DNA from: Fimicolochytrium jonesii
Lineage: Eukaryota
NCBI RefSeq assembly: GCF_025526975.1
Contig: NW_026515669.1
Location: 372,001 to 436,000, forward strand
Direction of reading: 5' to 3'
Length of the DNA: 64,000 nt
Below are positions 6,655 to 45,197 of the stretch, piece after piece (within the stretch, counting starts at the first letter, position 1; every line of letters starts with the position of its first letter). The notes beneath the pieces are model-generated. The model saw only the letters and a program-made list of their open reading frames with translations. It made no database searches and was not told the origin of the DNA. Position numbers and translations under genes: made by a program.

Positions 6655-7632
6655 TCTCGTAACGGCTTCAGCGAGATAATGACCGATGACCATATTCTTG
6701 AGAAGACCGGCCTTGAAGTATCGAATCTGATCGATAAGGGGAATGGTGCCTTGATCGTTATCGAGACGATGAGCGGCTTCAAGCTCATTATTGGTGTCTT
6801 GGAACTCCTTGATATATTTCTCAAGAGAGTCACCGAGCTTGAGACCGGAGAGCTTGAGCTCAATATTATTACGCAAGTTCCGAGGATAAAAGTGAGCGAC
6901 AAGAGCCGTTTCAAAAGCTGACCAACTTGCGGGAGCGCCGGAGGCGTAAGTCGTATTGTACCACTCGAGAGCAGTACCCTTGAGGTAGGTAGTGAGCGTA
7001 GGGGCGTACTCTGCCATAGTAAAGGGTATGGCATTGGCAGCTCCAGTACCGTCTGTTCCAGCTGCTACAGCCGGGACAGTGAGAGACTCGAGAAAGTTGT
7101 GGTGAGACGAAACGAACTCTTCGATCTTTTTGGCAGCTTTGGCGCCATCGTATTCGACGAGCTTGTTCTTGCGAGCGTCAATAAGGAGTCTGAAACGTTC
7201 GGCTCGTTGGACGTCCTGCGTAACAGCACGCTCCCAAGTAGCAAAAGCGGCTGCGACAGCCGCAACGATAGCTTGAGTTTGTTGGTCCATTCTTGCTTGT
7301 GAACGAGTGTACGGGCGACGTCCGGTAGAAGAGGACATTGACGAGGAATGTCTTGGTGATGCTAGCGGTAGGTGGTGCTACCATGTAACGTTGGAGGAAA
7401 CGTAGACAATATTGGGCCCTTCTGAGAGGGCTGAGAGCAGTGTATTCTAGTGAAGAAAAAAGTAAGAAGCTCTTCGCAGCGGCCGCTCGACTGACAGCTT
7501 TATATATGGGCTGCCAGCGGGGCTTGCGTGGCTTCAGTGAGGCTTGGCGCCTTATGTAATGTATCACCGAGAGCTCGGGTGGCCAGCCCGGGTCTCGGAT
7601 CATAGAAGTAAAGAGATATAATATGAAATACA
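6655..7632 (-). mobile_element. Element C: truncated LTR retrotransposon (5' LTR 7384-7632, PBS, gag 5' part 6655-7338) in reverse orientation
   Basis: Minus strand TGTATTTC..CGTTACA followed by TGGTAGCACC; gag motif YLKGTALEWY...SWSAFETALVAHF. Confidence 0.82.
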
Positions 7633-9585
7633 ACTGAAGATGAGATAACCCCGACACTGGAAGGAGCGTTCACCGAGGAGATTAAACACGCGCAGAAGGG
7701 GGACAAATTCGTCGCCCGGTACCTCGCATTCTTTGAAACGGGAGAACTACCGGACAACATCCTGACAAAGCAACTCATGCTACGGACGATCTCCGACCTA
7801 CGCGTCCAGGACGGCATACTCTATCGAATTCAAGAGTTTCGCCGACCCGGGTACAGACGCTGGATGTTCAAGCAGATCGTTGTACCGGCCAAATTGTGAA
7901 GACGATGCCTGGAGCTCTGCCACGACGACCTGTTGGCAGGACATCTGGGCAGAGACAAAACCTTCAGCAGACTTCAACAGTCCTTCTGGTGGCCGGAATG
8001 CGTGGCGGACATGATCAATCACCTCGCCAGTTGCGTCAAATGCAATCAGCACAAGCCGGAAATGCCGAAGTCTGCGAGAGGAGGAGAGATGGACTCAATC
8101 GTCATTGGAGACGTGTGGTGGCGGGTTGGAATGGACTTGCTTGGACCCTTGCCGGCTACAAGGAATACAAAGTTCAAATACGTACTCGTTGTCATCGACT
8201 ACGCCAGCAAATTCAGCTTCGCAATTCCATTGAAGGACGCAAAGGCGTACACGGTTGCCCGGGCTCTTATGGAGCACGTATTCACCATCTGCGGGGTCCC
8301 CGGAGTGATAACGTCGGGCCGTGGACAGCCCTTCACGAGCGAGGTTCAGAAGGCGCTACTGAAGCTACTGGGGGCCGCCCCAGCATTAGCGTCGCCCTAC
8401 CTCCCACCATCCAATGGGCTTGCGGAGAACACGATCAAGACGCTCTCAAAGATGATCCAGACCTACGTGAACAAGTACACCCACGACGACTGGGACCGAC
8501 AACTTCCGTACATCTTGTTCGGTCATCGGACCATGATGCAATCACCGACATTGGAGCTGCCATTCTACCTGATGTTCGGACGCGACCCCCAGATGCCGGG
8601 ATTCTTGTGGGAGAAATCCCACACGCCAACGGAGTCATGGGAGCCGATTGGGAAAGGAGCAATGCCGGTCGGGGACTTGCGAGCGGAGATTGTCAGGCGC
8701 CTGCAGATTGCATGGGATTTAGCCAAGGAGAACGTCGTCAAAGCCCAAGCACAACAAAAGGCGTGGTACGACAAGAACTCCGAGAAGGCAAGCTACCAGC
8801 TAGGAGAACGAGTCTGGCTGGCAATTCCTCAGTTTCGCAAGTCGGCCAACGTGGAAAATGCGACGGCCATCAAGAAGTTCGCTGCCAAATGGAGTGGACC
8901 ACACCGGGTAGTAGGTGTCGGCGACAACGGCCTCACCTACAAGCTTATGGAACTCCTCTTGCCTGTGGAAGTCATCTACCGGACAGCCCGTATCCGGCGC
9001 ATGCGACCATTCACTGCCAGACGACCGCTAGACCCGACGGAGCTAATTGAGATGGACGAAGAGGAAATTTCGACAGCTCAATTGGCACAGGCAGCGACAG
9101 CTTGAGTCTTGAAGAAGACGCCATTCAGGCCTAGAGCGTACGGGACGTCCCACGAACTGAAGAAGCGAGGGCTTGACCCGGACACGGACTCGGAAGACTC
9201 TGATGGCAATGTTGAGCATGAATGGGAGGCCGAGAAGATCATTGACCACCGCCAGGACGACAATGGGCAGTGGGAATCCAAAGTCCACTGGAAAGTCTGG
9301 AACATTCGGTACGACAGCTGGGTGGCACTCTCGGACTTCCGAGGGCAGGAGCTACTGGATACGTACTGTCGCGCAAATGGCGTCACCATTGGGGACGAAT
9401 CACCTACGGCGGACGCCCAGACCGGCGACGACAGCACGCAATTACGCCGCCCCACGAGACAATCCACGCAGAAGTCTCCAAAAAGGGGAGGAGATAAGGT
9501 CGGGGATACTACAGAGGCCGCAGGGCGGAAACAGAACAAAGGAGGGAACAAAGGGTCAGCTGGTCGGCAAAGGAGTAGAGAATGA
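7633..9585 (+). pseudogene. pol 3' part of A: integrase (HHCC, DDE core, GPH motif) and chromodomain; in-frame stops near 7897 and at 9103
   Basis: HDDLLAGHLG..CVKC, VGMDLLGPLP, SNGLAEN, WSGPHRV; EWEAEKIIDHR..KVHWK..DSWV. Confidence 0.92.
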
Positions 9586-9750: not shown

Positions 9751-9759
9751 CATAAATAG
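9751..9759 (+). promoter_or_regulatory. Putative internal TATA-like promoter for the 3' PHD-TET ORF of A
   Basis: CATAAATAG followed by a C-rich leader that, with B removed, reaches the ATG at 30671 about 120 nt later. Confidence 0.45.
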
Positions 9760-9831
9760 CGAGCATCAGAATCCGCTTCCCTCGAGCCTCACCGACCCCC
9801 AACCGACTACCGCTCCCCAGCACGCTCCTAC

Positions 9832-10076
9832 TGGTGGAGGTATCATCCTCCCAAGTCCCCGGTTAGGGTTCGCGTAGTTTATTTCCTCACGTGACTCCCC
9901 TCCTGCTTACGCCACGCTTCTGCATACGGGACTTCACTCTTTTCTTCCCCTTTGGACCTCGCGTCCTCTTTACACTTCAGACTTTTCTACACAAGACAAT
10001 ACATACTTCACAGTACAACACTGCACACTACATAGAGTTTGCTCAGTCATCTGCTTCCTCTGCCGACTACCGCTAA
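9832..10076 (+). repeat. 5' LTR of B
   Basis: Direct repeat of 30371-30615, about 14 differences counted by eye. Confidence 0.92.
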
Positions 10077-15501: not shown

Positions 15502-18500
15502 TCAAAAGAAAAAAACCGAAGAAACGAAGAAACCGCAAAAGTCAAGGAAGGGAAGGAAGGACAGAGTCGGCGGGTACAAGAGCGGAATGTCGGCATCCGA
15601 AGTGGACTCGATAATGGGAGCGCACGCCGGGGACGGAGGCATGCCGGCACGGCGGCGGGAGGTAGAGGTATCATTGACGATCTCTTGGTCCCGGGAGGGG
15701 AGCGTAGCGTGGAGGGCGGTGGTAGCAGGGACGTCGTAAGAAGGCGGAGTAAGAAGGGCAGGTGCATACCACGGCTTAGCCTTACGCGCGGGCATTAGGC
15801 GAATGTGGTTTACCGGGCGACCGTTGTAAACCAAATGACCGTGTTCGTTGACTAATCGGTACGTATTGCCGGGGTAGGCCTTGTCAATTTGGAACGGGCC
15901 AGACCAGCGAGCGACCAGTTTGCGGGTGGACGTGTACGTGATGTCGAGCTCGTTGCGGGCGACATAAACCCAACTACCAACGGAGAAGGAGCGAATCCTG
16001 GGGTGATCTGCGTTGAGAGCCGCGGTTTCCTTGTCGCGCTGCGCGTTGGCGAATTGGAGGGCCCAGGTACGGAGGAGGTTGCGGTTGTCCTGATACCCCG
16101 GAGACAAAATGCGATGGATATCGTCCGACGCTGGAGGCGGCGACGTACCAGGGAGTCCAGGGATATGGCATTGTTGACCAAAGACGATGTTGTAGGCAGA
16201 GACACCCGTGGTACAAGAGATGTGTTGGAGGTACGTACTCAACGCGGCATCGACGCAGTCGGGCCAGATCGTGAGATCGGGTTGGGAAGGATCGGTGGAG
16301 CGTTGAAGGACAATGTGGGAAAGGATGCGGGTGAAATCCTGGACAAACTTCTCCGCGCGACCGTTGCCCTGGGGATGCATGGTGGATGTCGGTACCAACT
16401 CGATGGATTTCTTCGCAGAGTAAGCGGCAAAAGCACCTTCGACGAAGTACTGGGCATTGTCGACTACCACATGGGCGGGGGTACCGTAGCGGGCAGTCCA
16501 GTCGCGAAGGGCAAGAACGATACCGTGGCCGTCAATCGTACGAAGAGGATAGGCCCAACCATAACCGGAAGTGTAACAAATCACGAGTAGGCAGCCGATG
16601 TAACGAGCGGCGGTCCGACCGATTTGCGTGGGGGGATAACTAACGCAGTCCAATCCAAGAAGAGTGAACAAGATCGGCGGTGGGGTGTAACGAAAGATCT
16701 GGTACAAGCGGGGTCGGCGGAGCTGGCAGAGCTGGCAGATGCGGCACGCACGGATGAAATCCTCGATGTCCGCATACATGTAGAACCAGAAGTACCGAAG
16801 CGCGATAAATTGGTAAGCGGATAGGACACCGAGATGACCGAATTTGTCGGAACCGTGAAAGGTATGTTTGATGTGGGTGACTTCCTCGATGCGGGGAACG
16901 AGACGGGGAGGCATTCGCGGTAGAGATCTGCGATACAGACGGCCTTCATAAACCAGAAATTTCTTGGAAAGAACGCGGATACGATCGTGCTGCTTGCCGT
17001 CGACGTGTAAACGGGAAAAGTGGCCAGTCAAGAACTCGTAAATCGAATCGTAGGGCTCCCAACCCGGGGTGAGAAGCTTCACGCTGGCTGAAATCGGGAT
17101 GTCGTTGAGAGCACAGGGTCGCGAAGCGTCTAACTCGTCATCGACGGTACAAGAGGGAACTTCTTGGGGGCCTGCGGCAGGGCGCCGAGAGAGGGCGTCG
17201 GCGTCGATGTGAGCAGCGGTGCGGCGGAAAATGTACTTGGGCCAGCCCTCAGCAGCCGGGATGGAGTTGATGCAGTCGAACCATTTGAGGATGCGTTCGT
17301 TGGGGGTGTGGACGTTCTGGCAGTGCACCCAAGCGAGGTGGTCGGTGATGATATAGAATTCGAATCCCAAATTGACTTGAGCTTTCATGAGGCCGAAGAC
17401 AATAGCAGCGAGCTCGCGTTCCGGTTGGCCATAGTGGAGCTCGGCGCCAACCCACAATCGGCTGAAGAATTCACAGGGAGAGTACTTGGTGGTGGCAGTG
17501 ACGTGGTAGTCGTCGGCGGGGTCCTGGCAGTGAGCGATGAGGACGCCAGCCCCAGTCCCGGAACCATCAGCAGCAATGATGAGGGGACGGCTTGGGTCGT
17601 ATGCGTGCAAGACAAAACTCTCGTTGACCAACCGCTTGACTTCGAGAAAGGCGCAAGCGTAATTCTGGGTCCGGTGCCATTCTGTGTGGAACGCCCGTCG
17701 GTCAGCGTACTGTTTCTGGAATAGAGCGTTGAGGGGACCCATGGAAAAGCTGTAGTTGGGCAGACCGTCCGAGATGAAGCCGACGAAGCCACGGAACAAA
17801 CGGATGTCTTCTTGTGTTCGGGGGGTGGGCCACTGGAGGACGACGTCGAGCTTGCCGGACGTGGTTGCAATCTGACCCGAACCGATGATCTTGCCCAGAG
17901 CCGGAATGCGTTCAACGGCAAACACGCACTTGTGTTCGGAGATGGATCCATTGTGCTTGCGGACGGTTTGCAGAAAAGCGCGGAGACGATCAAGGTGCGT
18001 GGGTGAACCGGTGGTGAGATTATCTTCGCCGATGTAAGGTTCGTCACGGAACAACTCGGTGTGGTCCTTAAGGAGCACCACGTCGCGGATCATGTCGTCT
18101 AACTGAAAGGAGAACCATTCACCGGAGTCGATGAACCCCATGGGCATGACGGTATATTGATAGATGCCCCGCGGGAGGAGGATAGCGGTCATCCACCGAC
18201 AAGCGATGTCGAGGGGCCCTTGATGGTAGCCGAGACGAAAGTCGAATCCGGACAAGCGAAGGAAACGAGCGATACGCTGTAAAACAATGTGCGCAGGTAA
18301 GATCGGGTAACGAATCGGTTTGATGTACTTGTTGATCTTGAAATTCGCGCAGACACGGGCAACACCATTTTTGTACGCGACCAACGGCAAGGCAGCAACG
18401 AGAGGCGGTTCCTTGACGGGTTCTAACTTTTCCCAGCGCAACATGCGATCGAGCCACTCATTGAGGACCTTTGTATCCGCCGGGCTGTGCGCGCGTTGCT

Positions 18501-19492
18501 TGGGGAAGGGGAGCTTGCGGGTTCCCGTGGGATCCAGGCGCAAGGTGGGACGCATAGGAGCGACGCCCGTAAAAGTGCGCGGGATCTCCTCCTTGTTGCA
18601 AAACTCGGCATCATGTTCGGCAAGAAGGGCAGCGAGCTCGTCAACGAATGTGTCCGGCAGGTCAGCAGCGATTTGGAACGTACGCTTTCCCACGCGAAGG
18701 GGACGAGTAGGTGTGGCTTGTATAGTGAGCGCCAAGGCTGAGCGGACGGTGACGCCGGCGATGGTCTTTTCGTATATCTCTGCAGCCGGTGGCGGATGAG
18801 GTGGATCCGGAGATTCGGGGGAGGTCAACGCGGTCATCTTGACGTGGTAATCCAGGATGAGTATGTCGGTCATTAAGACGACGTTGAGCAGGAGCGGAAC
18901 ATGGTCGGAACCTTGGAGATCGGCAAGGATCGTGCATGAAATGCGTGGGGGATAGCCGGACTCCGGTGGAAGGCCCAAGAAGATGTAATCAAGTCGCAAA
19001 CCGATGTTGTTGGCGCGAGCGTGCTTGCCGATCCACCAGGTAGTGAAGCTGATGTCGTGGGGGTGGCATGAGCGCCAAGTATCGACGAAGTCGTGGGAAG
19101 CAAGATTGCTGAGCAGCGTACGCTCCGCATCAGTGACGCCAGTCTTCATGAGCGGGAGGACCGACGGATGGATATCGCGATCTTCTTGAGCGATGTTGAA
19201 GTCGCCAGCAAAGACGACATGCTTGCGGGCTTGCTGGGCGCGTTTAGCGATCGGAAGAAGAGCGGTGTGCATGTCGCACTTGGTCAGGAGCGCCTGTTGC
19301 TGCTGATCCGTATCGCCAAGCCCACCATTCGGGTAGTAGACGTTGATGATGGAGACGGTATCCAACTCCACAACGAGCACGCGGCCTTCGACATCGTCAT
19401 TGTTGGAGATGGGTAACGTGGTGGTGACCGTAGGTTCGGTTATGACTAGCTCGTTGCGAATATAGGTACCGACGCCCTTGACGCCTTGCTTG
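15502..19492 (-). CDS. D pol 3' part: ExoIII/APE endonuclease C-terminal part, RT, RNase H, integrase
   Basis: YYPN, GDFNIA, FVDTWR..HP, TWW..RANNIGLRLDY, GSDHVP; then FDFRLGYHQ/YTVMPMG RT, ADGS/ERELAAI/DADALSR RNase H, HHCC, HPQGNGRAE and WSGPF integrase. Confidence 0.92.
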
Positions 19493-19497
19493 CTTTC

Positions 19498-20027
19498 TGT
19501 TATGAATGGGCGGAGCCGACGGAAATAGAGGCGACTTGTGGTGCAGGTTGTTGACAGGTAATGGTATTCAGACCGAAACAAGAACTAGAACAAGACTAGG
19601 AAGAACTGGTGTTGATCTGCTGGGGGATCAGGAAGTGGGGAGCTCAGGGGAGGCGGCTATTTATGCTTTTCTGGGAAGGCTGGGGAAGCGTGCGGAAGCA
19701 GAAGGGTACGGAATGAGAGGGAAGCCAAGAGAAGCGCCAAGGGTGGGGAAGCATAGAAACAGAAGACTGGGGATGGGGTGGCTACGCTGAGGCTGTGGGC
19801 GGGTACGTGGGGAAGTATGGAGAAGGGTTTGTAAGCGCCGAGTGTTGGGAGGTGTGGCTACGTGCGGCTGCGTGGAGAAATGAAGGCAGTGGCAGGTGTG
19901 GGGTAGCGCGGCTGCGTGCGGCTGCGAGGTTTGGCAGATGTCAGGTTTTGACAGGGAATTGACATTGACTGACTGTTGGGATGCTGTCATGAGGTAAGCG
20001 CATGGTATGGACGCGTCGTCCATAACA
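19498..20027 (-). repeat. 3' LTR of E
   Basis: TGTTATG...CATAACA; direct repeat of 24846-25375. Confidence 0.96.
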
Positions 20028-20039
20028 TCACCCCCTCCT

Positions 20040-23000
20040 TTAGCCAGGGCGTCCGGATGTTGTTTTGATGTTGGCAGGCTTTGGTCGGGGTTTGTCGGGG
20101 TACTTTTGGTGGAACTGGGCAACAAGCTCTTGACAGCGGGCAAGGTGTTCCACTGGCTCCCATGTGTTCTCCGAGCTTGGCCAACCCTGCCACTTGATGA
20201 GGTACTGAAGGTGCGTGCGTCGAATACGGGAGTCAAGAATGTCTTCCACAATCCATTCCTCCTGTCCTTCGACTTCTTCTGGTGGGGTGGGTTCTGGCTC
20301 AGTTCGCTCCGGAATGGTGAAACGTGGTTCAAGAAGGGAGACATGGAAGACGTTGTGAATTTTGTAGGATGGGGGAAGCTTGAGGCGATATGTGACCGAG
20401 TTGATCTTCTCCGTGATTGTGAAGGGGCCAATCTTACGGTGATCAAGTTTCTGGGAAGGTCGGAGAGTCTTGAGATTCCGCTGTAAGAGCCAGACACTGT
20501 CCCCGGGTTTCATGTCTGGGCCAGGTGCCCTCTTAGCATCGGCAAAGCGCTTCATGCGTCCTTGGGCCTCCTTGAGCTCAGTGGCAAGCTGTTCATGGAT
20601 TTCCTTGAGATGGTTGGCACGAGCTTCGGCTGCAGGATTAAGGGATTCGGTTGTGGTGGCGGAAGCCAGACTGAATCGAGGATGGAACCCATAGTTGGCG
20701 TAGAAGGGGGTTGTCTGGGTGGCGGAGTGGATGGTGTTATTGTAAGAGAACTCAGCAGAAGACAAGAGTTCCTTCCAGTTATCTTGTTGATAGTTGCAAA
20801 AGCAGCGAAGGTATTGCTCAAGAATCTGATTGGTCCGCTCGGTTTGTCCATCGCTCTGGGGATGGAACGCCGATGAGAGGTTGACCTTGGTTCCCAGGAG
20901 AGCGAAGAGACGTTTCCAGAAGTGGGAGTTGAACTGTGGGCCACGGTCAGATACAATATCGTCGGGGAGTCCATGGAGCCGGATGACATGGTGCCAGATC
21001 AGATCTGCAGTTGACTCAGCGGTGGCAGTTTTCCTGCACGGTACAAAGTGCGCCATCTTGGTGAACCAGCAGATGACAACGAGCACAGAATCAACCCCAT
21101 CACTGGCGGGTAGATCCGTGATGAAGTCCATAGAAATTGACCCCCAGGGGCGGTCAGGGACCTGCAGGGGTTGGAGGAGTCCGTAGGGCTTGTGTCTGCT
21201 GGTCTTGGCTTGAGCACATACGTTGCAGGACCTGATGTAGGACTTGACAAAACGCCACTGGCTAGGCCACCAGTAGTTGCGTGAGATGAGCTCCAGGGTC
21301 TTTGACATGCCCTAGTGTCCTGCCAAACGCGTGTCATGCATGTCCCGGCAGATCTCAGCACGGAGCTTGTTGGTGGGGACGTAGACAAGGTTGTCGTACA
21401 GCAGAACCCCATTTTCCTCGGAGAATTGCTTTATCCGTTCTTGGTCTTCTTGAGATTGCTGGGCAATGGGGGCCCTAAGCTGTCGCCGGATGGTTCGCGC
21501 AAACACATCGGATGCCAGGGCAGCTTTGATTTGGTCAAGGAGCGAGGAGTCCAGTGGGGTCAGATAAGTGGCGGCCAGGCGGAGATGGTCAGGGGTGAGG
21601 ATCGTGGTTTCCTGGGAGCGGAATGCTTCTTCCCCCTCCCTTAGCTCGTATTCAGAGCGACGAGAGAGGGCGTCAGCTTGGTGTTGCTGGGTACCAGGGC
21701 GGTATGTGATGACAAAGTCGAAATCAGCAACGAAGATTGACCAGCGGGATTGGCGGCGGTTGAGGGTACGGGTAGTCATGAAGTACTGGAGGTTCTTGTG
21801 GTCACAGTAAACGATGACCTTGTGGCGGGCGCCAATGAGGTGGTGTCGCCATTGAGCAAATGAGTCTTGGATAGCCAGGAGTTCCTTGTCGTAGATCTCA
21901 TAGTTGATTTCCTCAGGAGTAAATTTGCGGGAGTGAAAGGCCACGGGGTGGAGTTGATCTGTGTCATCGGGTTGAAGGAGGACGGCGCCAAGGGCAAAGT
22001 CGGAGGCATCGGATTCGACAATGAAGGGCTTGTCAGGGTCGGGGTGAGTCAGGATAGGTGCGGAGGTGAAGGCTTTCTTGAGGGTTTCAAAAGCTAGGTG
22101 TGCAGCGTGGGTCCATTTGAATGGCAAGTCTTTGCGAGTGAGCGTGGTCAGGGGTGCAACGATCGCAGAGTACCCTTTGATGAATCGCCGGTAGAAGTTG
22201 GCAAAACCAAGGAAGCGCTGGATGCCTTTGACATTCGTCGGGGGTTCCCATTCAGGTAATGGCAGCCGTCTTCTTTGGGTCCATGGAAATGCCTTGCTGG
22301 GAGATGATAAACCCCAGGAACTCAACAGAGTCACGGTTGAATTCGCATTTTTCCGGTTTCGCGTACAGCCCGTGCTGGCGGAGTCGTGAGAGCACCTCTC
22401 GGACGTGGTTGGGGTGGTCTTCTGGGTTTTTTGAGAAGATCAGAATGTCGTCAAGGTAGACCACAACAAAAACGTCGAGAATGTCACGGAATATGTCGTT
22501 CATGAGGTGTTGGAATACTCCAGGGGCATTGGTGAGCCCAAATGGCATGACATTATACTCGAATAGGCCGTAGCGACATCGGAACGCTGTCTTCCATTCA
22601 TCCCCTGGCCGGATCCGAAGAAGGTTGTAGGCTCCCCGGAGGTCAATCTTGGTGAGCCGGCGTGCCCCTCGAAGACGATCCATGATGCTGTTAATCAAGG
22701 GCAAGGGATAGCGATTCTTGATGGTGATATTGTTGAGTCCACGATAGTCGACGCACAGACGGAGGGAACCGTCTTTTTTCTTGACAAAGAGGACTGGGGC
22801 ACCGGCGGGAGACTTGGAGTGCTTGATGAACCCCTTAGCTAGGTTCTCTTCAAGGTAGTCACAGAGTGCCTGCATTTCAGGCTCGCTGAGACTATAGATC
22901 GGGCCGAACGGTGGCTGTTTGCCCTCTTCTAAGTCGATGGGACAGTCGTAGGGTCGGTGCTCTGGGAGGGTATCCGCGTTCTTCTTGGCGAAGACGTCCG

Positions 23001-23709
23001 CAAAATCTTGGTATTCTTCAGGAATGATGGCCTTCGGATCTTTTGGAGGAGTGGTCGCCAGGGCTTGGGAATCTGACTTGGTCGGATTGGCGTAGGCAAT
23101 GAATGCCTGGTCATGCCTTGCCGCCACACGGAAAGCTGGGGCGCTGATAAACGATACGTGGATCGGTGTGGGTGCTGGGTCCAGTGTGTTGGGTGTCTGG
23201 GCTAGGGAGACTGAAATCTTGTCTTGATGGATACGGATCAGAGGTTCAGGGGTTCTTGAGGGCTTCGGGCTAGGTTCTGTTGGCAGGGCATCCCAGGAGG
23301 CGTATTGTCCAAAACCGCAATGGCAGCGGACGCAAAGAGTGCGAGTCTTCCAGTGGAGCTCCACATCATGGAGCTCAAACCAGGGAAGCCCCAGGATGAT
23401 TGGCGCATGCGGGGAACATGTCACATGGAATACCACCTCCTCAAAATGGTCGTTGACCCACATGCCCAAAGGTTGGGTGTGATGGGTAATGGAGCCCGCA
23501 TGGCTGGGACGTCCGTCAACCAGTTCAAGCGCAATGGGGTCCTCCTTCTTGACAAGTGGGATGCGGTGCTTGCGGGCATAACTTTCGTCGATGAAGCACG
23601 ACATCGCACCGGTGTCAAGTAGTGCTGAAAGCTGAACTGGAGCTCGCTGGGCCGATATCTGCAGGGTAACAGGGTACTCGAATGGTGAGGATGGGCCCAA
23701 AATCCGCAT
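20040..23709 (-). pseudogene. pol of E (PR, RT, RNase H, INT, chromodomain); one frameshift near 22260 and one stop at 21312
   Basis: [61 protein letters not shown]. Confidence 0.95.
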
Positions 23710-23867
23710 GGGTGAGGGTATCTCAGATCGGAGATTGACATTGTTGGTGGTCAGGAGAAGGGTGTTGCTGGAGATGCCAGGATCGGAGCAAGGTTTTGTG
23801 GCTTCTCCCTTGGCAGTACTTGCATGGTGAGAAGGCCCAGGACAGGTGTTGCCCAGCTGCTCGGCCT

Positions 23868-24815
23868 TTACTGCAGCTGGACTTGGGCAAAATCCTGGAT
23901 GGGTGCAGGTTCCTTAACCGCGACATTCGCCGTGCGTATCTTGTTTGGGCAGAGTTTGGCTATGTGGCCAGGTTTACCACAATAGAGGCAAAGTTTGTTT
24001 GTGATGCGGTGTTGGCGCTCTAGCGGTGTGAGGGGTCCTCGCGGACGAGCAGCGTCAATGACCATAGGGTCGTCTGGGCGGTTGTCGGGGCTCATGAGGG
24101 TGGGGCTAGTGGTAACTGGCACATATGGCTGTCGGTTCCTGCTTCGCTCTAGACGGCGCTCAAACAATCGGTTGTCACATTGGATGGCCTGTTCCATCAC
24201 GGTGTCGATTGAGGCGGTAGGGGGCATCGTGAGCATTAAGTCCTTGACGTCTTCTTTGAGGCCGCGACGGAAGGTGGCAATCAATGCCTGGTCATTCCAC
24301 GACACATCGCATTGCAGCTGTCGGAATTCAGCTACATACTCTGTTGCTGCACGGGTTTGTCGAAGGTTCTGGAGCTTGTTTTCGGACGTGCGGATCCTGT
24401 CGCTGTCTCCAAAGACTGCTTGCATTTGCTGGATGAAATCATCCAGGTTCGTAAGGGAATGATGGTCTTGTTCGACAAGGGGCGCCAGCCAGGCCTGGGC
24501 GGTGCCAGTGAGGTAGGTGCCAATAGTTCGTATCTTGGTCTGATCGTTGGGGTAGCGCCTGGGTTGGAGGGCGAACATGAGCCGGATCTGGTTGAGGAAC
24601 CCACGGAACTTGCTTCGGGTGCCATCAAATTTGTCTGGGAGACTGATTTTGGGTTCGGGGGCGTGAGTGGCAGGGGCAGTGGTCTGGGTTTGCGCTAGTT
24701 CGGCTTGTAGGGTGGTATTCTGCGCTCGAAGTTCGTCAATCGCATTGCACATGGCTTGCCAGGCTTCGGCCGTGAGGGGAAGGGCGTCGGACATGGTGAT
24801 TTGACGTGGAGGCAC
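23868..24815 (-). CDS. gag of E
   Basis: [31 protein letters not shown] knuckle. Confidence 0.93.
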
Positions 24816-24845
24816 AGCGGCTGGGGGTTGTTGAGCAGATCAAAC

Positions 24846-25375
24846 TGTTATGAATGGGCGGAGCCGACGGAAATAGAGGCGACTTGTGGTGCAGGTTGTT
24901 GACAGGTAATGGTATTCAGACCGAAACAAGAACTAGAACAAGACTAGGAAGAACTGGTGTTGATCTGCTGGGGGATCAGGAAGTGGGGAGCTCAGGGGAG
25001 GCGGCTATTTATGCTTTTCTGGGAAGGCTGGGGAAGCGTGGGGAAGCAGAAGGGTACGGAATGAGAGGGAAGCCAAGAGAAGCGCCAAGGGTGGGGAAGC
25101 ATAGAAACAGAAGACTGGGGATGGGGTGGCTACGCTGAGGCTGTGGGCGGGTACGTGGGGAAGTATGGAGAAGGGTTTGTAAGCGCCGAGTGTTGGGAGG
25201 TGTGGCTACGTGCGGCTGCGTGGAGAAATGAAGGCAGTGGCAGGTGTGGGGTAGCGCGGCTGCGTGCGGCTGCGAGGTTTGGCAGATGTCAGGTTTTGAC
25301 AGGGAATTGACATTGACTGACTGTTGGGGTGCTGTCATGAGGTAAGCGCATGGTATGGACGCGTCGTCCATAACA
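24846..25375 (-). repeat. 5' LTR of E
   Basis: Direct repeat of 19498-20027; minus-strand ATAAATAG at 25005-25012. Confidence 0.96.
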
Positions 25376-26913
25376 CTTTCCGCGAGTGACCAAAAGGAAC
25401 GGTAACCTGGGATGTCCGCCAGGGATAAAGGTAAGGTTTGCCGGGAACACTTGAATTCTTGGAAGCAGACCACATCTAACTTCAATTCCGTAAATAAAGT
25501 GGAGAGCGCGACGCCTTTGCGGACGAGGTTCCGAAGAGAGTTAACGTTCCAAGTGAGCACGCGCAAGTCTTGTATCGTTGGGGCAACCGGAGGTGGAGAC
25601 GGTTGGGACGCGGGCATCAGTAAATCCTGCTCGAGCTGTGATGCGGCCGGCCGAAGAAGTAGGGGAGTGAACGACGAAGGGGGCGCGTCGTCAACAGCAA
25701 GCGCGTGAAGGAGGTTGATGCGATCATCCAATGCGTCCGTCGACGAGGGAGGCGGGTCAAGAGGTGGTGCAAATTCGGTACACAACACGCCGAAGAGAGC
25801 GCCGTTTTGAATATCCGCCAGCGTCTGCGCACCGTCCGTATCGATCTCGACCCGGAAATTGTTGGCGGTGAGAGCAGCAACATGCGCATCAGCGGTAGCG
25901 GCTTGCGTTTGGGAACGGGTGCGCGGGGCAGGGAGCGCGGTCGGGGTGAGCGGGTGCCGACCATGCGCTTCCCATTCAGTGTTCTCAGCGGGGGTGAGCG
26001 CGCGAATCTCTTGCGTATCCCCAGTGCTGCCTTGAACGACTAACCACGTGGAATGGATGCGTAGGTGATAAATGGCTTGCGACCAACGAGTGATAGCGTC
26101 GACATATTCCAAAAATGGGCGGCCCAACAAACAGTCGGCGTCCATTCCATGGATCACTAAAACGTTGATGGGGATCTGGTGACCCGCGACCGTGATGACT
26201 AATCCACGCACGGCGCCTTCGATGGATGGCAAGCTACCGTCGACTTGTCGTAAGCGGAAAGAAGGCGTCAAAGACGAAAGGGTCCATTGATTGCGCTGGC
26301 GCAATGCCGCGCTGATCGCGATGAGACAACAGCCGCCGTCGAACAAGCACTTGGTGGGTGCACCTTGGATTTCCGCGTTCATGAAATGGGTGCCCGTAGC
26401 GGAGACATCAATCATGGCCAATTGCTTAAGATGGAAGTTCAAGCGTGAATCGAGGGTGTTGTCATCCGGCGAGGTCCCGTCTTCGGCGATGTCAGTGTCG
26501 GGATGCCACGCGCCAAGTAAAGGTTCGCGAAAACACAGTGCCGCGCGGCGAGTCTTGTTTACCAACTTCATGGATTCTCGTAACTTCTCGCGAAGAGCCG
26601 GGCTCCATTGTAAGAGGTCAGCCATCGTGAGTCCTCGCACTTCGGTTTCGTTCAAGAAATTGACGATGTCGAATGGGATCTTATCGATCATGGCGCGGAT
26701 GGTTGCCGGAATACGTTCCTCCTGGCTCTCCGGTTGCAGCAACTTGGGAGGGTCCTTAGCCCGGCTAGCCGCATGTGTTGGCGGCTTCATCCCAGAATCC
26801 ACGGGAGGTGCGGGCGCCGGTTGGATTACGGGTTTGACTGCCGGGGGTCGCGGAGAGGGGCTCGCTTTGGGAGGTGGTCGAGGGGGTTTCGGGGGACCAA
26901 CCTCCATGGGCAT
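25376..26913 (-). CDS. D pol 5' part: aspartic protease and N-terminus of the AP endonuclease
   Basis: CLFDGGCCLIAIS..LLGRPFL protease; LRVLTWNVNSLR..DVVCFQEFK EEP-nuclease N-terminus. Confidence 0.9.
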
Positions 26914-26918
26914 CGGAG

Positions 26919-28978
26919 CTAAACGGACAACCGGCAGTGGTCGCGGTGGCTTGGTAGCGGTATGCGACGCTCGGGCGGAAGCTGAACGTATGGCTGTACC
27001 CGCCGATCGGGATACTGCAAAGCGGTGGTAAAACGTGTGGGACGTGGAGGCCGCGGGGGTACAGGTGCAGGTCGCAAGGAAATGTTCAACCTCTTCGATG
27101 GTGGCATATCAGAAGCCTCATCGTAGTGCTTGCGCTTTTCGGCCATGTAAGCATCGTACGCCTCATATTCTTCAACGTTGTAGGGCACTCCTGGATCTGG
27201 AGGATAGGGTGACGGGAGCTCGGTGCCCTCTAAGCCGAGCTCCCTGGGAGAAAATCCGACGGGGAGTCTTCGGGGTCAGCGTAGTACGCGCCGACGTCTT
27301 TGAGCACCCAGGAATAATACTCCTCTTGGGTATCGTCGTAGTCGGAGATATCCTCGGGGTAAAAGCAAGCGGCCAACCGATACCCACGCCAAGTGTCAAG
27401 CTTGGTCATCGACTTGCAGTCTCGGAACCCGTGCCCAGTTTGGCCGCAGCGGAAGCAAGATCTTTCAGGACGCCTCTGGGGGCGGGCGGACGGCAGACCG
27501 GGAGGATATTGATTGCTATTGGATGCCTGTTTGACGGCCAAGTTCTGCATACGGGAGGTAAGATCGCTGACTGGATCTGCTGGCGTAGTCGTCTGAATTG
27601 TAGTTTGAATTGTAGGCGCTGGTGGGGCTTGTTGACGAGGGGCCGGTGCCGGAGTCGGATACGTACGGTCACAACTGGGGTATGCGCGCGGAGCTTGACG
27701 GACAGCCGGAGGGCACCAGAAGTCCGTTCGATTGGTGGCGATCGGGGCCGAATATGCGTCTTTGCGCTCAGCGTAATCCGCACAGGCACTTACGAGATCC
27801 TCAATGGGGAGCTGGGTGAAGTTTGGCAAGCTGAGGGCGTGTGTGAGAGTAGCGCTATCACCCAAGCCGCGGATAAAGGCTCGAGCAATCTGGGTGCGGG
27901 TGAGTTCAGTGGCGACTGTAGCAATGTGCTTGTTCAGGTACTCCAGTTCGTAGACCAACGACAAGAACAAGCTCCCGTACTGACGAATGGTCTGCCCTTC
28001 CGTGCGCTGGAAAGTCGAAATGCGATCTGCGAAAAGCGACGGGTCACGATCGATCGAACAAGCGACGGGTCACGATTCTAGAACCATGTCGGTGCGAACG
28101 TGGTTCCAATCTTGTGTGTTGCCTTGGTACGACGCAAACCAGGTCCATGTGAGATGGTCTTTGTCATCACTCGCTTTTGACAACCAACGAAAGCGGTCTT
28201 TTTCGGGAACGCCGCAGGAATCCGCCAGCTTGTCGAACGTGCGGAGCCATTGCAAGATTCGCGAGGTGTCCTGGTGGTGCTTGTTGCCCTCGTATTTAGG
28301 CAGGCCTTTCTGGAGGGACGTGTTGGAATTGGCCGTCTGCGGATTGCGCTGAAGCTGCTCGAGGGTTCGGAACATCAAAGTGACCAGATCTTGTTGACTG
28401 ATCGCGCCATCCACCGGGGCAGCGGGCATTGCGCCAGCACGATGCAAAATCGGCGGCATTGGACGAAGACCGGCGCTGTTCGGTGGCGCGGAATGCGGTC
28501 GAGCGGTGCTGGCGTGCGGACCGGCATGGTACCTATCGCGCGCCATGCGCCAAGCAGCGGCGATCTTGGCAACGTCAGAGAACTCGCGGAGAGTGAACTG
28601 TGCAGGATTCGCGTCCAATGCGAACTTCAATGACTGGATGTAGATGCGGTCAAGAGAGCCAGCGGCAAGACCTTCACACACGGAGTCGAAACTGATGCCC
28701 ATATTCGTACAAAACTTGAGTAGACCATACAAGATCTCGGTGTCGACATGGGAAACGGTACCATACAAGCTGATCTTGACCGTGGCGTGTTCAATAGTGG
28801 AACGAGCGATGAACGTGTCGATACGATTACGAGCGGTCTCCGTGGCACAAGCACACGCAGACTGGGTATCGCTACTATCATGCTCGCTAGACTCTCGTTC
28901 CTCCTGCTTGTCGCTGTGCAACGGACGAGTGTCGCGCCAATCATTGCCAAGGAAGGCCGGGCTACCGTGGAAAGCCAT
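26919..28978 (-). pseudogene. gag region of D (in-frame stop at 28070, frameshifts downstream)
   Basis: LPKYEG..ILQWLRTFDKLA capsid-like motif; CFRCGQTGHGFRDC knuckle. Confidence 0.8.
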
Positions 28979-29522: not shown

Positions 29523-29526
29523 CCGC

Positions 29527-30232
29527 CTCCACCAGGCGGACCCCCTGGACCCCCTCCCCCGCCGTTTCCGTCACCGTTTCCATCCTCACTCGCATCCATG
29601 TGCTTTCTCAAGTACTGGAGTCGCTTCATCATCTTGTCTTGCTCCCGTCTCTCGACCGCATCACTGCGGCGCTTCGCCTCTTTCATCTTTTCTTTCGATA
29701 TGCCGCCTTTTGCCTTATATCGCGACTCCGAGACTGCCTTTCACCCAAGGTAGTCTGCCTCCTCCATCAATGCCTCGAACAACCCCTTCTTTCGCTTCGA
29801 TCGATCCAGTTTTGCCTTTGTAAACGCCAGGTGCTTCGCGAGGATCTCATGGTTATCCTTGCGGTACCTCAACGTCGATACCTCCGTCGCCAATCGAAGA
29901 GCTTCTCTAACTTGGGCTTTCGACATCAAAGAGTTGCTTGCGGACGCTGCGGACGAAGCGCGCGTAGAGCGCGTAGTCAGTCGTGAGGGTCCTGGCGGAG
30001 GTGCAGCTGGAGGGGCTGCGGGCGCTCCTGTCTTACGGGCCGTTTGCTTCTTCTTGCCGTCGCCGCTCTTCTTACCACTCCTGCCGTTCTTGCCTCCGTT
30101 TGCCATTGTTTTGCGTATCGTGTGGTAGTCTGGGATACGGTAGTTGAGTATGGGGAACGTTGGTCTTACCTCTCTGGGGCGACTGACAGCTGTCTCTTGT
30201 TTTATACTCGCGGCGGTTCCCTCTTCTTTCAT
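29527..30232 (-). pseudogene. Antisense accessory ORF of Copia B; basic, coiled-coil, H3-tail-like motif; last codons at 15089-15153
   Basis: ORFs 29741-30232 and 29450-29686 share a frame (one TGA). Removing D continues it in frame GGPPGGG|GAGAGGAPGARAAATITVAG*. Confidence 0.65.
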
Positions 30233-30370
30233 TTTTACTCTTTCATTTCTTTCATTTTAGTCATAGCTATTCACCCAACGTCCGCCCGCTTTTTCGCGTA
30301 CGGCCGCACCATTTCACTCATTGCTTAGATTTATCTTTCACTTAGATAGACTCGTGAGTTTGAGGTGGGG

Positions 30371-30615
30371 TGTTGGAGGTATCATCCTCCCGAGTCCCCG
30401 GTTAGGGTTCCCGTAGTTTTTTTCCTCACGTGACTCCCCTCCCGCTTACGCCACGCTTCCGCGTACGGGACTTCACTCTTTTCTTCCCCTTCGGACCTCG
30501 CGTCCTCTTTACACTTTAGACTTTTCTACACAAGACAATACATACTTCACAGTACAGCATTGCACACTACATAGGGTTCGCTCAGTCATCTGCTTCCTCT
30601 GCCGACTACTGCTAC
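30371..30615 (+). repeat. 3' LTR of B
   Basis: Direct repeat of 9832-10076, preceded by GAGGTGGGG PPT. Confidence 0.92.
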
Positions 30616-30670: not shown

Positions 30671-33378
30671 ATGTCCCGAAGATCCTCCACCACCTCCTCA
30701 AGAAGATCCAGCGTCGCAGACCTGTCCAACGCGGTCTCGAAGCCACCTATCCTGCCACCAATGACCAGGACCAAGAACCAGCGCACGGACTCGCCGGTTC
30801 CCAGTACCCCGGTCCGCTCCGTGTACCCCCACAAACCAATCGAGGTCGACCCTCCCCCTCAGATCGACAGAGGGTTCAGAGAAGCCACCAGCTCCCGTAC
30901 TCCCGCCCCAATGAAGGCAACGGGGAACAAACGTCCGCCAATCCGCTCGCCCAGAATCACCGTGCGAAATGCCGGCGACACCCCTGTTGACACCCGCAAG
31001 AAAAGGAAGGTGTTGGATACGCCCGAAGAGCCACGAAGAGGCAAAGCGATCATCGGCTCCGCCACTCTCAGTGTCTCCGGCCTGGACCCGGAAGAGGATG
31101 AGTTCACGAGCGAGACCCTGACGAGAGACGTGGGATACCAGCCCGGAGAGGAAGAGGAATACTACGGAGCAGAGAAGAATGGAGCTGTCTGCATGTGCGA
31201 AAACCCGGACGATAGCGCTTCCATCTATGGTCGCGTCGTCCATGCGAACGCGGAGACCTCTGCTGTGGAAGCCAATTCTACCACCCAGAATGCCTCAACA
31301 ACCAGAGACTGCCCCACCCTCAGGAAGACGAAGAAGTCTTGCAGGCCTACTTTGCCCAGTACAACTTTGTTTGCCCGCCCTGCCTAGAGGACCTCCCGGA
31401 GAATGCAGAAACCGACGGCAAGATCGCTGCGACCAAGCACCCGAACGTCGGAAAGAAGAGGGGACTGCGTCTGGCGCCCTACGACCATGAGAACGGCAAG
31501 TGGAGGACCGACTTCGCGATGAAGACCGGGGAGGGGGATACGGAGGAAGACCGACCGTACTGGGTCTCAGGGAGGGACATCGAAAAAGTCATGCTCCCAA
31601 GCCAATACAAGGAGTATACGGACGTCCCATCCACCATGTACACCCGTGTGCACGGCCTCTTCCCCCAACCGGTGCTGACCTCGCGCTCGAAAGCTCACAA
31701 CTACATGCGAGACTGGGAAAAGGAATTGATCTTGAAGCAAGCCGTCTTCGTCGTCATTACCAACCTGGAGCCGCACTACGCGCAATGTGCCAAGGCCCTC
31801 CGCAAAGAGCACGGCATCCACGAGACTCCGGACGACCTAGAGGACCCCAAAGCACTGCTCCGCCAAGCCGCCTTCCCCCGCATCGACCAGCCCAACTACC
31901 TTATCTACGCAGGCCCCAACCTTTGGGAACTCGAGATCATCGTAGCGAGGTTTGGGCCCAAACCCAAAGACAAGCCGGAGGACAAGGAGCTGACGCTCGG
32001 CGTGCCAAGAGTAGAGTCTGAATTGTGGTCAAGTCTGGCGTTGAAATGGCTTGCCACCGGCGACCTTGGTTCGCTCAAGCCGAAGGGATGGAGGACACCG
32101 GAGGGCGAAGCAAAACACGGGGGATCACCGAGGTTCAGAACTCAACGGGGGCACCCAGCAGTGGACGCACAGGCGGTCATCCACGGAGGGGTACGGACAA
32201 CGACAACCTCCGGGGGAAAGACGAACAAGGGCAAATTCCCTTACCCCACAGCAGAAAGTCGACACGTGAGATACGGCCTTGGGTGGGCGGAATACCTAGA
32301 ATTTGCGGAGAATGCCACGGCACACAAGCGCATGGCCATTTGCCACGAATGGATCGACCCCGCTAGCCATGCCCGACGGAGGAAGGTTATCGACAACCTC
32401 CCTGCCCAATGTCAACACAACATTCCTGCGGGCTCCCCAGGCACTATGTGTGTCATCAACTTCAATGTGACCGTCTACTGCCACGTGAACCCCAACGCCC
32501 ATGGGTTCACCGTTCAATACATCCACGGAAGCTTCTCTGCCGGAGACCTCGCCTTCTGCAATTTGCATCTCCGTGCCGACACACCCTCGGGCACGATCAC
32601 TTTGGTCCGCACCCAGCTAGCAGAACACACAGTGCTGGATTGGGGACCACTGCCCGGGCGGAGCTGGACCAACACCTGGCGTTTCAGTCAGCCCGCCACG
32701 ACGCCACAGGATGTCCTGCACGCCCATAGCCGGAAGGAACTTCGGGAATCCTGGGCGAAGTACCGGGGCGGCTCATGGCCTACCCAGGGGCTCAACATTG
32801 CCCAGCGTCCCAAGGCCGACGTAAACTTCGATTCTCAAAGTCAGCTTGAGACCCTCAAGACGAGCCTGCAGGAGTTGCCAGACATCTACATCGGCCACAC
32901 TTCCATCGCCAGCGGCGACGGAATGGGCAACCCAGACCAATTTAACGAGGATAGGCGGAACATGCTGTCCCGTTACACGGCAGGCGTCGACGACTTCGCC
33001 CCGATCGCCCGCCTCCAGCAGCAAGAGACTGCCTGCAGAGCCCACGCCACCCTCGCCGCCAGCGAGCACGCCACCCTCGACGACATCCTGGATGCAATTG
33101 TCGCTCGGTACCCTACTACCCCTCCGACCTCACCCCCGCAACCACCTCGCCCTACGCTCTGAGCTAACATCACGCCCTCAACGAGACTGCTCCTCAAGTA
33201 CCAACACGTCGTCCCTCTCCCTGAGTCCGACGCCGACGAAATACTCCGCAGATGGTGGCTCGAAGTACGCACCCTCAGCGCAGAAGCTTGTCTAGAGCCG
33301 ACCCAGACCACGACTCCGGGGACGACAAGACCATCTGGTGCCGGACCATCCCGCGCTGGTCCATCCAGCGCGCGCTGA
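30671..33378 (+). pseudogene. Accessory ORF of A: disordered N-terminus, PHD finger, TET/JBP-like 2OG-Fe(II) dioxygenase (1-nt frameshift near 31241, TGA at 33160)
   Basis: CMC..(P)CERGDLCC..FYHPEC..FVCPPC is a C4HC3 pattern; INFNVTVYCHVN..GSFSAGDL.F..L...PSGTI.L.RTQLAEHTV...GRS fits the fungal TET/JBP-type DSBH core. Confidence 0.75.
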
Positions 33379-33565: not shown

Positions 33566-33579
33566 AAAAAAGGGGAGGA
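33566..33579 (+). promoter_or_regulatory. Polypurine tract of A
   Basis: AAAAAAGGGGAGGA directly before the 3' LTR. Confidence 0.85.
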
Positions 33580-33998
33580 TGTGAAAGTGATCAGGTTGAC
33601 AGCGTATGAGGAGATGGGGAGACTCAAGGGAGGATTAGTATTTGCGCGCGCGTAACCAGGCGTGATCAGGAGTAGGATAGAGACACACCCCCTCCCCCGC
33701 CCCACTATAAAAAGGACGACACTGGCGTAGATTGCCCGGAGAGCATCTTACCGGCTATAGACTAGACCATAAGTTTGTACCATAGGAGCTCAACTGACCA
33801 AACTGACTAGCGTACCTACGCCTAGCAGTCCGGGGTTGCCAATATATGGAGTACGCCCAAGCGTGTCTACTTGTGTGGTGAGAATAGGGATTTAGTTGGT
33901 CTCTACCTTTTACCTTGCACTCTCCACGAGTAGATTACCTCCACCCGCGAATGACCCGATTTAGGACCTATCTCAGGGAATAATCGACCACTTTCACA
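33580..33998 (+). repeat. 3' LTR of A (419 bp)
   Basis: Direct repeat of 696-1112, followed by the GAGG TSD. Confidence 0.95.
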
Positions 33999-34658
33999 GA
34001 GGCCCACTGCGCCCAACTCCTGCCCATCCTTTGCCGACAAGAAACTCGTAAGCCCGGCCCCAAAAGTGGGCCTCAAATTCAAACCAGAACTCAGTAACAC
34101 GAGAAGAGAAGATACTGCAGCCCCGCCCACGGTAGTCCTTGACCATAAAGAACTGTAACTGTTTTGTATAGCGTGGTAGGTGTTAGTGGTGGCAATTGTG
34201 ATAATAGCAAGATTGGTAAGCAAAATAAAAGGGGCAGATGGGCGAGCACGACACACACATACCTGACTCGCAATGAATTCCCAGAGCCAGTGAGTGGGCC
34301 TCAGGCATTTTGAACCTACAGCCCGCATCGCCATCACAGCAATATCGTTCACCTCCATGTCCTCAAGGTCGGTGAGCTTGTGGTACTCAGTGTACAGCTT
34401 TGCTGCTCGATACGAATGTTCGTTCTCCTTCCCAAAGATGAAGGCACCTTTCTTGTTGTTGGCCTCGACTCGCTTGGCAAGCAGTGCTACTTTTGCGAGC
34501 AACTGATCGTCGGTGAGCTTCCCATTCCGACCTCGGAAACACATGAGGCCAGTGTGCAGAAGATTTCCTTGCATGGCCCTGTTCTCGTCGACCAGGCATT
34601 GAACTCTCTGCTTTGCCTCCTCATGATCCTCCTGCAGTTTGGTGTAGGTTGTTTGCAA
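33999..34658 (-). pseudogene. 5' part of the putative transposase gene split by A (coiled-coil exon, intron 34159-34262); true start may lie further upstream
   Basis: Phase-0 GTATGT..CAG intron gives ..EFIASQ|LQFFMVKD..AYEFLVGKG, in frame with ORF 324-860 across the TSD. Confidence 0.45.
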
Positions 34659-34820
34659 TATGCTGAGGTCGTTTCCGAGTTTGGTATGTTTGGGTTGGAG
34701 TTTGGTGTGCCTTGTGTCGAGGTGGGCAAGGAAGCCTGCAAGAAGATCCCATTCTGTTTCCAGGTGTCCTTTGACTCATTGGGATCTAGTGCATACCTCC
34801 AGAAGGATGTCCAGCTGTCC

Positions 34821-34905
34821 CAATGTTCTCCAAACCACTCCCAGTGTTCTCCGAACCACTCCCAGTGTTCTCCGACCCACTCCCGATGATGTCCGAACCA
34901 CTCTC
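34821..34905. repeat. About 4 copies of a 21-bp tandem repeat
   Basis: CAGTGTTCTCCGAACCACTCC-like units. Confidence 0.8.
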
Positions 34906-35566
34906 CATGTCATCGGCTGGGTTGTCCTCTCTACCTTCAGCTGATTCACCAATTGAACTCAGAAGGCAAAGAAGTGCAGTACTGACACAACCCTGAGCTA
35001 AAATGGAGCGAACAACAGCTTTCCCATGCATTATAAGGACCTCCTTAATTCCATCGGCCGAACATAAGGTTTTCAATGTGCTCTGTGTCTCCCCAGGGCA
35101 CATTGCTTTCAGGAACATCGTAGGTCGTGTCGGGTTGGGTCAGAACTGAAGCTTTGGGACTCCCAGAGCTTCTAACAGACTGCTTGGATCGTAAAATCTG
35201 CAACAGGGAATGTAAATGGGATGACTTGAAAAGTGAACGAGGTTCGGGTATATTTTACCTGCACCTAGCTTCATCGTGCTCTCTGGCTGCCCTCATCTCA
35301 GGAATGAAAACACCCCCTTGGAAGGAGACTGTAGGGGCCCCAAGACCCCCTGCTGTTCGGAAGTACTTGGGGTTCATTGAATTGGGCCTGTGACGAGAAT
35401 CAATGTGTGTGTAGGAGGTTGAAGCCTAAGCTAGTTCGGACACCCAAATCGTATGTGAAACTCGCCAAACACTCCAAACTCGCAACGACGCGTCGTCACT
35501 AGTGCAGAATGTTTGTCACCACCCTGATCGTCACTCGCCTGCAGATAGCCACCGGCGCGCCCAGTC

Positions 35567-44159: not shown

Positions 44160-45197
44160 GTGGACAAGCAACGATGGTCCCGCCTTCTTCTCAAGCAGTT
44201 CCGCTTGCTTGTTCGAACTCTCAACCATCGTTTGGGTCTATCCCAGTCGCTTCAGTGTCCGGCTATGGTCAATCTGACTTTGCTGATCACCAAGAACGGA
44301 CACTTACAGTAGGCTGCCAGATATCAGGTTACGACGGGTTGTTGAGCCTCCCTGTGCAACCCCAGAAGTCACCGGCCAGCTGTCAGTCCTGCCCTGGGCT
44401 AGCGGTCGTGCTGAAAGGATTTGCATGGGGGTCGGCAACTTGAGCCGGTGGCTATGCTCGGAATGATGTGTCCTTGGGGCGTCGTAACCTGATATCTGGC
44501 AGCCTACTGTAGACGTCCCTTTGTTTGGTTGCTCGTTTTGGATCCGAACTGGAATGGGCGATCGTGCGGATATCCAAGCCAAGCTGCGGTTAGAACGACA
44601 AAGGAAGATAGTTTATCGATGGATAACCGATTCGCATATAAACGTGCTACGTGGCATCAAAGTTCAGGGAAACCCGCCGGGTCGATGTGCCGAAACAATT
44701 CCGTGGGGAGCCCTGAAAGGGCAAGCCGCCGCAAGGGGATGGGTGATGATGAGCCTTTCATGCTGGACCGAAAAGAACTCACTGTGGGATCCGTGTGCAA
44801 CGTGTTACACGGAAATGGCGAACTTGGAGATCTGGGGAGCAAGCGTGATCGCTTGGTAGTGAATTAACGTGGAATTGAGGATATTCGTCGATGCTTGAAA
44901 GACAATTCGGGAATCAGTTGCATCAGTGCGAGTGATCCATCAGATGTCCCGATGTTCGAGTGGATGTCCCAGCCAGTGGTCCCGTTGATCACATCCAACC
45001 CTTACTTGCTTTTTATTGACGGCCAAGGACGCATGTTCGCATACGATCAAGTGGGTCGTGATTTATACCTTCTCGGCAAAACCGTTACGACCGGGATAGA
45101 TGCTTGGGTTCGTTGCGCTTCCGACAAATGGCTCATGCTTTCACATGACGCGGGCGAATGGACGGGATATTATGGGGACGGGTCATTCGATGGGTAA
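44160..45197 (+). pseudogene. Degraded gene interrupted by a MITE; C-terminus SUKH/US22-like
   Basis: MITE removal restores ..ITKNGHL|DVPLFGCSFW..; later frameshift and stop; C-terminal LLFIDGQGRMFAYD...LYLLG. Confidence 0.35.
44307..44509. mobile_element. Tc1/mariner-type MITE (203 bp)
   Basis: Perfect 30-bp TIRs CAGTAGGCTGCCAGATATCAGGTTACGACG, flanked by TA on both sides. Confidence 0.9.

Follow-up and report, generated by a model that had tools for sequence, protein, structure and literature searches.

The window analysed in this study, a 64,000-nucleotide stretch of DNA from Fimicolochytrium jonesii, contains a Ty3/Gypsy retrotransposon (element A) with a broken gene in its 3′ part, and this locus raises the question of whether an LTR retrotransposon has taken up a gene of the TET/JBP type and, if so, what such a cargo would do for the element. 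The gene occupies positions 30671-33378 (+), with its ATG at 30671, and comprises 902 codons when an X is counted at both breaks, which agrees with the about 900 codons estimated in a preliminary description of this DNA. The first break is the loss of one base, suspected there near 31241; the frame switches at about 31242, going from CMCENPDD..GRVV to CERGDLCCGSQFYHPEC..FVCPPC, and the sister proteins P0004, P0005 and P0008 cross this point in a single frame. The second break is a TGA at 33160-33162, where sister P0004 has Arg and continues to the same C-terminus. The window copy also deviates at 7 positions past the frameshift where four relatives agree. This copy of the cargo gene, and of element A, is dead. 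The gene was expected to belong to a multi-copy family, and four sister proteins labelled Fimicolochytrium jonesii were indeed found on four other contigs. The best database match to the cargo protein is a model with the same species label, 99% identical, while in the public gene model P0003 a predicted intron spans the frameshift and the PHD finger is lost from the model. The N-terminal arm (30671-31189, +) is of low complexity and poorly conserved, with 26-31% identity to distant relatives, and in relative P0007 it is mostly modelled with pLDDT under 50. The C-terminal region (32721-33378, +) is broken by the TGA and ends at the true stop, 33376-33378.

Four LTR retrotransposons (A, B, C and D) are nested in the window. 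Element A spans 696-33998 and is enclosed by a single LTR pair with 94.6% identity, TG...CA ends and GAGG flanking both LTRs. The 5′ target duplication and LTR lie at 692-1112 (+; the 4-bp GAGG at 692-695, LTR at 696-1112), and the polypurine tract (33566-33579), 3′ LTR (33580-33998) and second GAGG (33999-34002) at 33566-34002 (+). Between them are a gag fragment (2033-3232, +; Pfam Retrotrans_gag, E=3.5e-5), a protease region with the first half of the reverse transcriptase (4690-6654, +), and an integrase (H2C2, rve) with a chromodomain (7804-9366, +, the chromodomain at 9223-9366; Pfam E=1.5e-15, 1e-7 and 1.4e-5). The second half of the reverse transcriptase and RNase H were not found in the element A pol; a minus-strand gag fragment from another element lies in their place at about 6655-7650. 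The copia element B (9832-30616, +; LTRs 9832-10075 and 30371-30614), which contains the Gypsy elements C and D and is flanked by CTAC on both sides as an imperfect target duplication, is inserted in the 3′ region of element A and has parted the cargo gene from its own upstream region. With B set aside, the gene lies between the integrase-chromodomain region and the 3′ LTR, which is the env-like position attributed to it earlier. The TATA-like site, given before as 9751, is present as ATAAATA at 9752-9758 (+); this putative promoter would sit about 130 nt upstream of the cargo ATG in an element A without B. A fusion of the cargo to pol was considered and ruled out: in an element A without B, the TAA at 9753 shares the frame of the cargo ATG, and the cargo is therefore an ORF separate from pol.

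Co-mobility is the weakest link in our reading, the cargo status being read from this one locus. Alternatively, a separate mobile or host gene could have inserted into the 3′ part of this single copy, the Gypsy family as such not carrying it, and it is in line with such an event that the locus is heavily nested, with at least four insertions in element A besides the cargo gene. However, the gene points in the sense direction of the element and takes up 2.7 of the 3.2 kb that separate the chromodomain from the polypurine tract and 3′ LTR when B is removed, no transposase was found nearby, and no intron was seen where P0007 and P0011 align. An insert bounded by terminal inverted repeats was rejected, as the sole inverted match around the ORF has a 9-bp core, which is chance-sized, and comes with no target duplication. 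We consider a one-off landing improbable. Scans of metagenome and viral data for DNA of the relatives confirmed no locus.

The first domain of the cargo had been described as a C4HC3 PHD finger hidden by the frameshift. It lies at 31190-31383 (+), split at about 31242, and all eight zinc ligands are present across the break (nt 31190, 31196, 31243, 31261, 31282 for the His, 31291, 31372 and 31381), with the same ligand pattern intact in P0004, P0007, P0011, P0012, P0018, P0020, P0022 and P0023. The ESM Atlas PHD score is 0.87, the predicted finger has pLDDT 59-72, and Pfam PHD_NSD matches sister P0004 with E=0.009, below the cut-off; the predicted PHD assignment is supported more weakly than that of the TET fold discussed below. 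The residue two before the His is Phe in the window copy and Trp in 6 relatives, a position which we take to be part of the H3K4me3 aromatic cage.

The second domain (31714-32720, +) carries the candidate active-site residues His 32482, Asn 32488, Ala 32497, Thr 32509, His 32626 and Arg 32680. Two lines of evidence for its fold are independent of distant TET-like sequences: in the ESM Atlas, cargo residues 300-540 of the window sequence alone fall with Tet_JBP clusters at 0.95, and a profile built from 5 close sequences gave 25 protein matches, 4 of the 23 scanned matching Pfam Tet_JBP below its cut-off. Within the close family itself Pfam Tet_JBP had no match, and sequence-only PDB searches did not find TET (0 matches for P0002, and 2 weak unrelated matches for profile A4). 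Because distant TET-like rows entered the AlphaFold alignments, the models cannot count as evidence separate from the profile search. The model of the second domain has a mean pLDDT of 76, with 85-93 in the core, and gave 21 PDB matches at E<=1e-3; among the matches listed, 17 of 17 are CcTet, NgTet1 or CMD1, and the first AlkB match appears at E=3e-3. A structure search with full-length P0007 retrieved CcTet at E=1e-9, NgTet1 with a TM(target) of 0.61 and human TET2 at 7e-6. The predicted models show a double-stranded beta-helix with TET-specific extensions, and the proposal of a TET/JBP-like enzyme downstream of the PHD finger is thereby upheld at the level of predicted fold, TET/JBP proteins being better matches than AlkB. 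With CcTet (7VPN, 8JKK, 7W5P), NgTet1 (4LT5) and CMD1 (7CY5) the domain would share the common fold and the positions of His, His and Arg at an identity of 10-14%. The same order, a PHD finger followed by the same TET lineage, is found in P0012, P0020, P0022 and P0023, which keep HxD and the PHD Trp. Three of these (P0020, P0022 and P0023) are compact proteins of 480-510 aa with HxD and no Pfam match, and represent an unannotated wider family. P0007, P0009, P0010 and P0011 have an extra alpha/beta C-terminal domain, modelled with confidence (about residues 890-1015 of P0007, pLDDT 65-95), that is absent from the window's family.

The metal motif of the window copy reads HVN at 32482-32490, with AAC at 32488, and EHT follows at 32623. 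The preliminary description had given the same HVN reading and suggested a private G>A decay mutation of HVD; the reading stands, whereas the decay mutation is rejected, since the nine close sequences that cover the motif (the window copy, P0004-P0007, P0009, P0011, P0014 and P0015) have HxN in 8 cases and HxK in one (P0014), so that HxN is fixed in the lineage and the family consensus is HxN, not HVD. HxN is retained among relatives down to 44-57% identity, and the nearest outgroup, P0012, has HxD. In a tree that left aside P0004-P0006 as well as P0009 and P0027, which cover fewer than 100 core residues, five members of the HxN lineage form one clade (95/88) with P0012 as sister, and 12 more distant rows have HxD in 9 cases and HxE in 3, one HxE being read directly from a misaligned sequence. 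This indicates an old, derived change from Asp to Asn. HxN members share 65-66% identity in the core, 50% in the PHD finger and 26-38% in the arms and linkers, which points to selection after the Asn change. The distal His is present in 8 of 8 close-clade sequences covering the position, and a conserved Arg in W-R-F-S at 32680, aligned to CcTet R385 via P0028, in 7 of 8. The GRS that had been taken for the Arg motif is not conserved, P0007 having GET there, and was discarded in favour of the WRFS.

Loss of the carboxylate would fit a protein in which the Asp-to-Asn change ended catalysis and which acts as a PHD-tethered, 5mC-binding shield or decoy against host readers or maintenance methylation. 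The carboxylate is gone clade-wide, with Lys in one member (P0014), the residues for C-terminal stacking and for N3 are altered as well, and Ala at any CcTet triad residue is reported to abolish activity (PMC11040006). On the other hand, the two His and the 2-oxoglutarate Arg have been retained over 40-55% divergence, and the Asn is kept in 8 of 9 sequences without drift. AspH is reported to be active with two His and water at the iron (PMC13168262). In the formal sense of the carboxylate ligand, the metal triad is lacking in all copies, an outcome that had been named beforehand as pointing to a non-catalytic derivative, but the two His and the Arg remain, and no part of the protein is more conserved than the core. 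The carboxylate loss thus does not refute catalytic activity, and we regard a shield or decoy as possible but rather unlikely.

The predicted map of the base pocket is not canonical either. Counted from the first His, position +5 is Asp in 7 of 9 close-clade sequences (Ala in the window copy, Asn in P0005) and +9 is Thr in 8 of 9, and the spacing H/+2/+5/+9 agrees with NgTet1 D234/S238 and CcTet H326/D328/G331. The cargo family would in this way have the equivalent of the Asp and Ser/Thr that serve the 5mC amine in NgTet1. Compared to CcTet, NgTet1 and CMD1, on the other hand, Asn replaces the metal Asp, and, by a register counted from the Arg, the family has Thr and Pro where NgTet1 has F295 and H297, which are reported to act in base stacking and N3 reading, respectively (PMC4678852). 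The Gly331/Asp337 pair of CcTet is also absent, with Asp at Gly331 and Thr at the Asp337-equivalent. A side chain at the Gly331 position, where CcTet has Gly, is described as binding the 5mC amine and clashing with the 6mA methyl (PMC11040006). The family Asp at this position therefore suggests that 5mC is favoured over 6mA, which disfavours the earlier view that the analogy with CcTet leaves a 6mA substrate open.

The same residues bear on the alternative that the enzyme is active with another substrate or chemistry, such as thymine hydroxylation as in JBP, a CMD1-like adduct, an RNA or RNA-DNA intermediate, or erasure of 6mA placed by the element's own Dam. Such a role is in agreement with the non-canonical pocket, with the report that base-reading changes move TETs toward thymine (PMC11804724), with CcTet as the top fold match and with a Dam-like domain in the same element A. 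However, the reported clash of an Asp at the Gly331 position with the 6mA methyl speaks for 5mC, the 2-oxoglutarate Arg is kept, and a fold rank at 10-14% identity is uninformative on substrate; this alternative also appears improbable.

The Dam-like (DIRS-type) adenine-methyltransferase domain lies at 3537-4124 (+), between gag and protease, and matches PF05869 with E=0.007, below the cut-off, with an intact NPPW at 3747. Relative P0033 has a Dam-like domain (52% identity), a protease region and the start of reverse transcriptase in one ORF and in the same order, which indicates that the domain belongs to the element family. A search for longer proteins that contain the Dam domain gave 6 matches, none labelled as the host species. 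In this respect element A resembles the DAM-LTRs and EpiLTRs of Fernandez-Moreno et al. (bioRxiv 10.64898/2026.05.21.726589), which likewise combine Ty3/Gypsy, a DIRS-derived Dam with NPP, a chromodomain and a further DNA-modifying enzyme. A DAM-LTR is defined by an NPP-bearing Dam in a Gypsy pol, and element A has one. EpiLTRs have Dam, a DNMT and a chromodomain; the ORFs of element A that were scanned gave no DNMT match, so that this combination is absent from them, and where EpiLTRs add a 5mC writer, element A instead has the predicted TET-fold domain and PHD finger as a separate ORF. By joining a TET fold to a Dam-like domain, element A mirrors the EpiLTRs reported in 2026, in which Dam goes with a 5mC writer. 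A further difference is the place of the Dam-like domain of element A, between gag and protease. The text of that preprint names no fungal lineage. It is tempting to speculate that the Gypsy family has its own epigenetic switch, made up of a Dam-like 6mA writer (NPPW), the chromodomain, the PHD reader and an active His-Asn-His 5mC eraser, which together would bring new insertions from the silenced (5mC) to the active (6mA) state of the host. This extended scheme is unlikely. Retrotransposon Dam domains are reported to have had no activity in E. coli (bioRxiv 10.64898/2026.05.21.726589), and the methyltransferase domains of DIRS1 are described as likely inactive (PMC4738411), which weighs against our preferred reading below as well.

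In the chytrid Spizellomyces, 5mC is reported to be confined to transposons and 6mA to lie on expressed genes (PMC12695648), and by analogy the same division may hold in Fimicolochytrium jonesii. Transitions between paired LTRs of elements A-D fall in CpG context in 17 of 31 cases, against 7.1 in simulation (P about 5e-5), with 8 of 17 in element A (P=0.02), 7 of 11 in B, 2 of 2 in C and 0 of 1 in D. Such CpG-biased decay would be expected if the host methylates the elements of the window. As the bias includes the LTRs of element A, the window copy of this element was not protected.

The reading that we prefer, to which we assign a probability of roughly 0.4, is that the gene is the broken third gene of a chromodomain-bearing Ty3/Gypsy element, that it encodes a predicted PHD finger and a predicted TET/JBP fold with a His-Asn-His site, and that intact copies oxidise the 5mC of the element against silencing. 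An anti-silencing cargo that acts on 5mC, with predicted catalysis, is the best reading of our data, and it is likely that the element family evades silencing by editing or shielding the marks on its own DNA. In the proposed sequence of events, the host would methylate CpG in retrotransposons, the cargo would be transcribed apart from pol, and the PHD finger would dock on histone H3 tails. The TET domain would flip out 5mC, with the conserved Asp and Thr reading the N4 amine, and the base would be oxidised by an iron bound to two His and to Asn or water, with the Arg holding 2-oxoglutarate. The Dam-like domain could then add 'active' 6mA, by which the element would erase a repressive mark and write a permissive one. 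The copy in the window is capable of none of these steps.

The gene is real and resembles the TET/JBP cargo of transposons, but its triad is not that of a canonical TET. A survey (Kojima 2025; PMC12730594) describes 11 DNA-transposon lineages with TET/JBP and states that none was found in a retrotransposon, for which it suggests a reason. The fungal DNA-transposon genes described there (PU, AG and PE) are likewise TET/JBP-fold cargo in mobile elements for which an anti-silencing role is proposed, and the TETs of the PE type are reported to have a fixed triad variant of their own, HxE, comparable to the HxN found here. For algal TETs, the carriers described are DNA transposons, Helitrons and a giant virus. 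The introduction of the DAM-LTR preprint states, with its ref. 20, that 'retroelements' acquired TET demethylases (bioRxiv 10.64898/2026.05.21.726589). Our literature search, which covered the main texts of largely open-access papers, listed no report of a TET in an LTR element and none of an HxN triad. The element A locus is a likely counter-example to the lack of TET retrotransposons in the survey, in a fungal group that uses 5mC on transposons and 6mA on active genes. The fixed Asp-to-Asn change would mean either that a TET works without a carboxylate ligand or that TET folds are retained by mobile elements to shield methylated DNA without catalysis; a His-Asn-His iron site is not seen in characterised TET enzymes. 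The intact natural relatives P0007 and P0011 (HxN) versus P0012 (HxD) offer a ready comparison.

Some further features of the nested elements may be mentioned. The 12-nt string CCGACTACCGCT at 9801-9812 of element A, about 20 nt before the insertion point of B, is identical to the end of the LTR of B at 10062-10073, and the LTR of B has no CA end. The 3′ region of element B (29523-30370) contains an antisense Lys/Ala-rich ORF at 29741-30256 (171 codons), for which a Pfam scan gave no convincing match and which is possibly a further cargo. The pol of the Gypsy element C (15502-27108, -) is split by element D and has, between protease and reverse transcriptase, an Exo_endo_phos domain (Pfam E=1.4e-5 and 9e-7 on either side of D), which is unusual in an LTR element. 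Element D (19497-25375, -) is very young, with LTRs 99.6% identical over 531 nt, and its pol is nonetheless in several frames. Outside element A, a 21-nt unit occurs four times in tandem at 34818-34922, and at 44295-44521 the arms of a 42-nt inverted repeat are separated by 143 nt.
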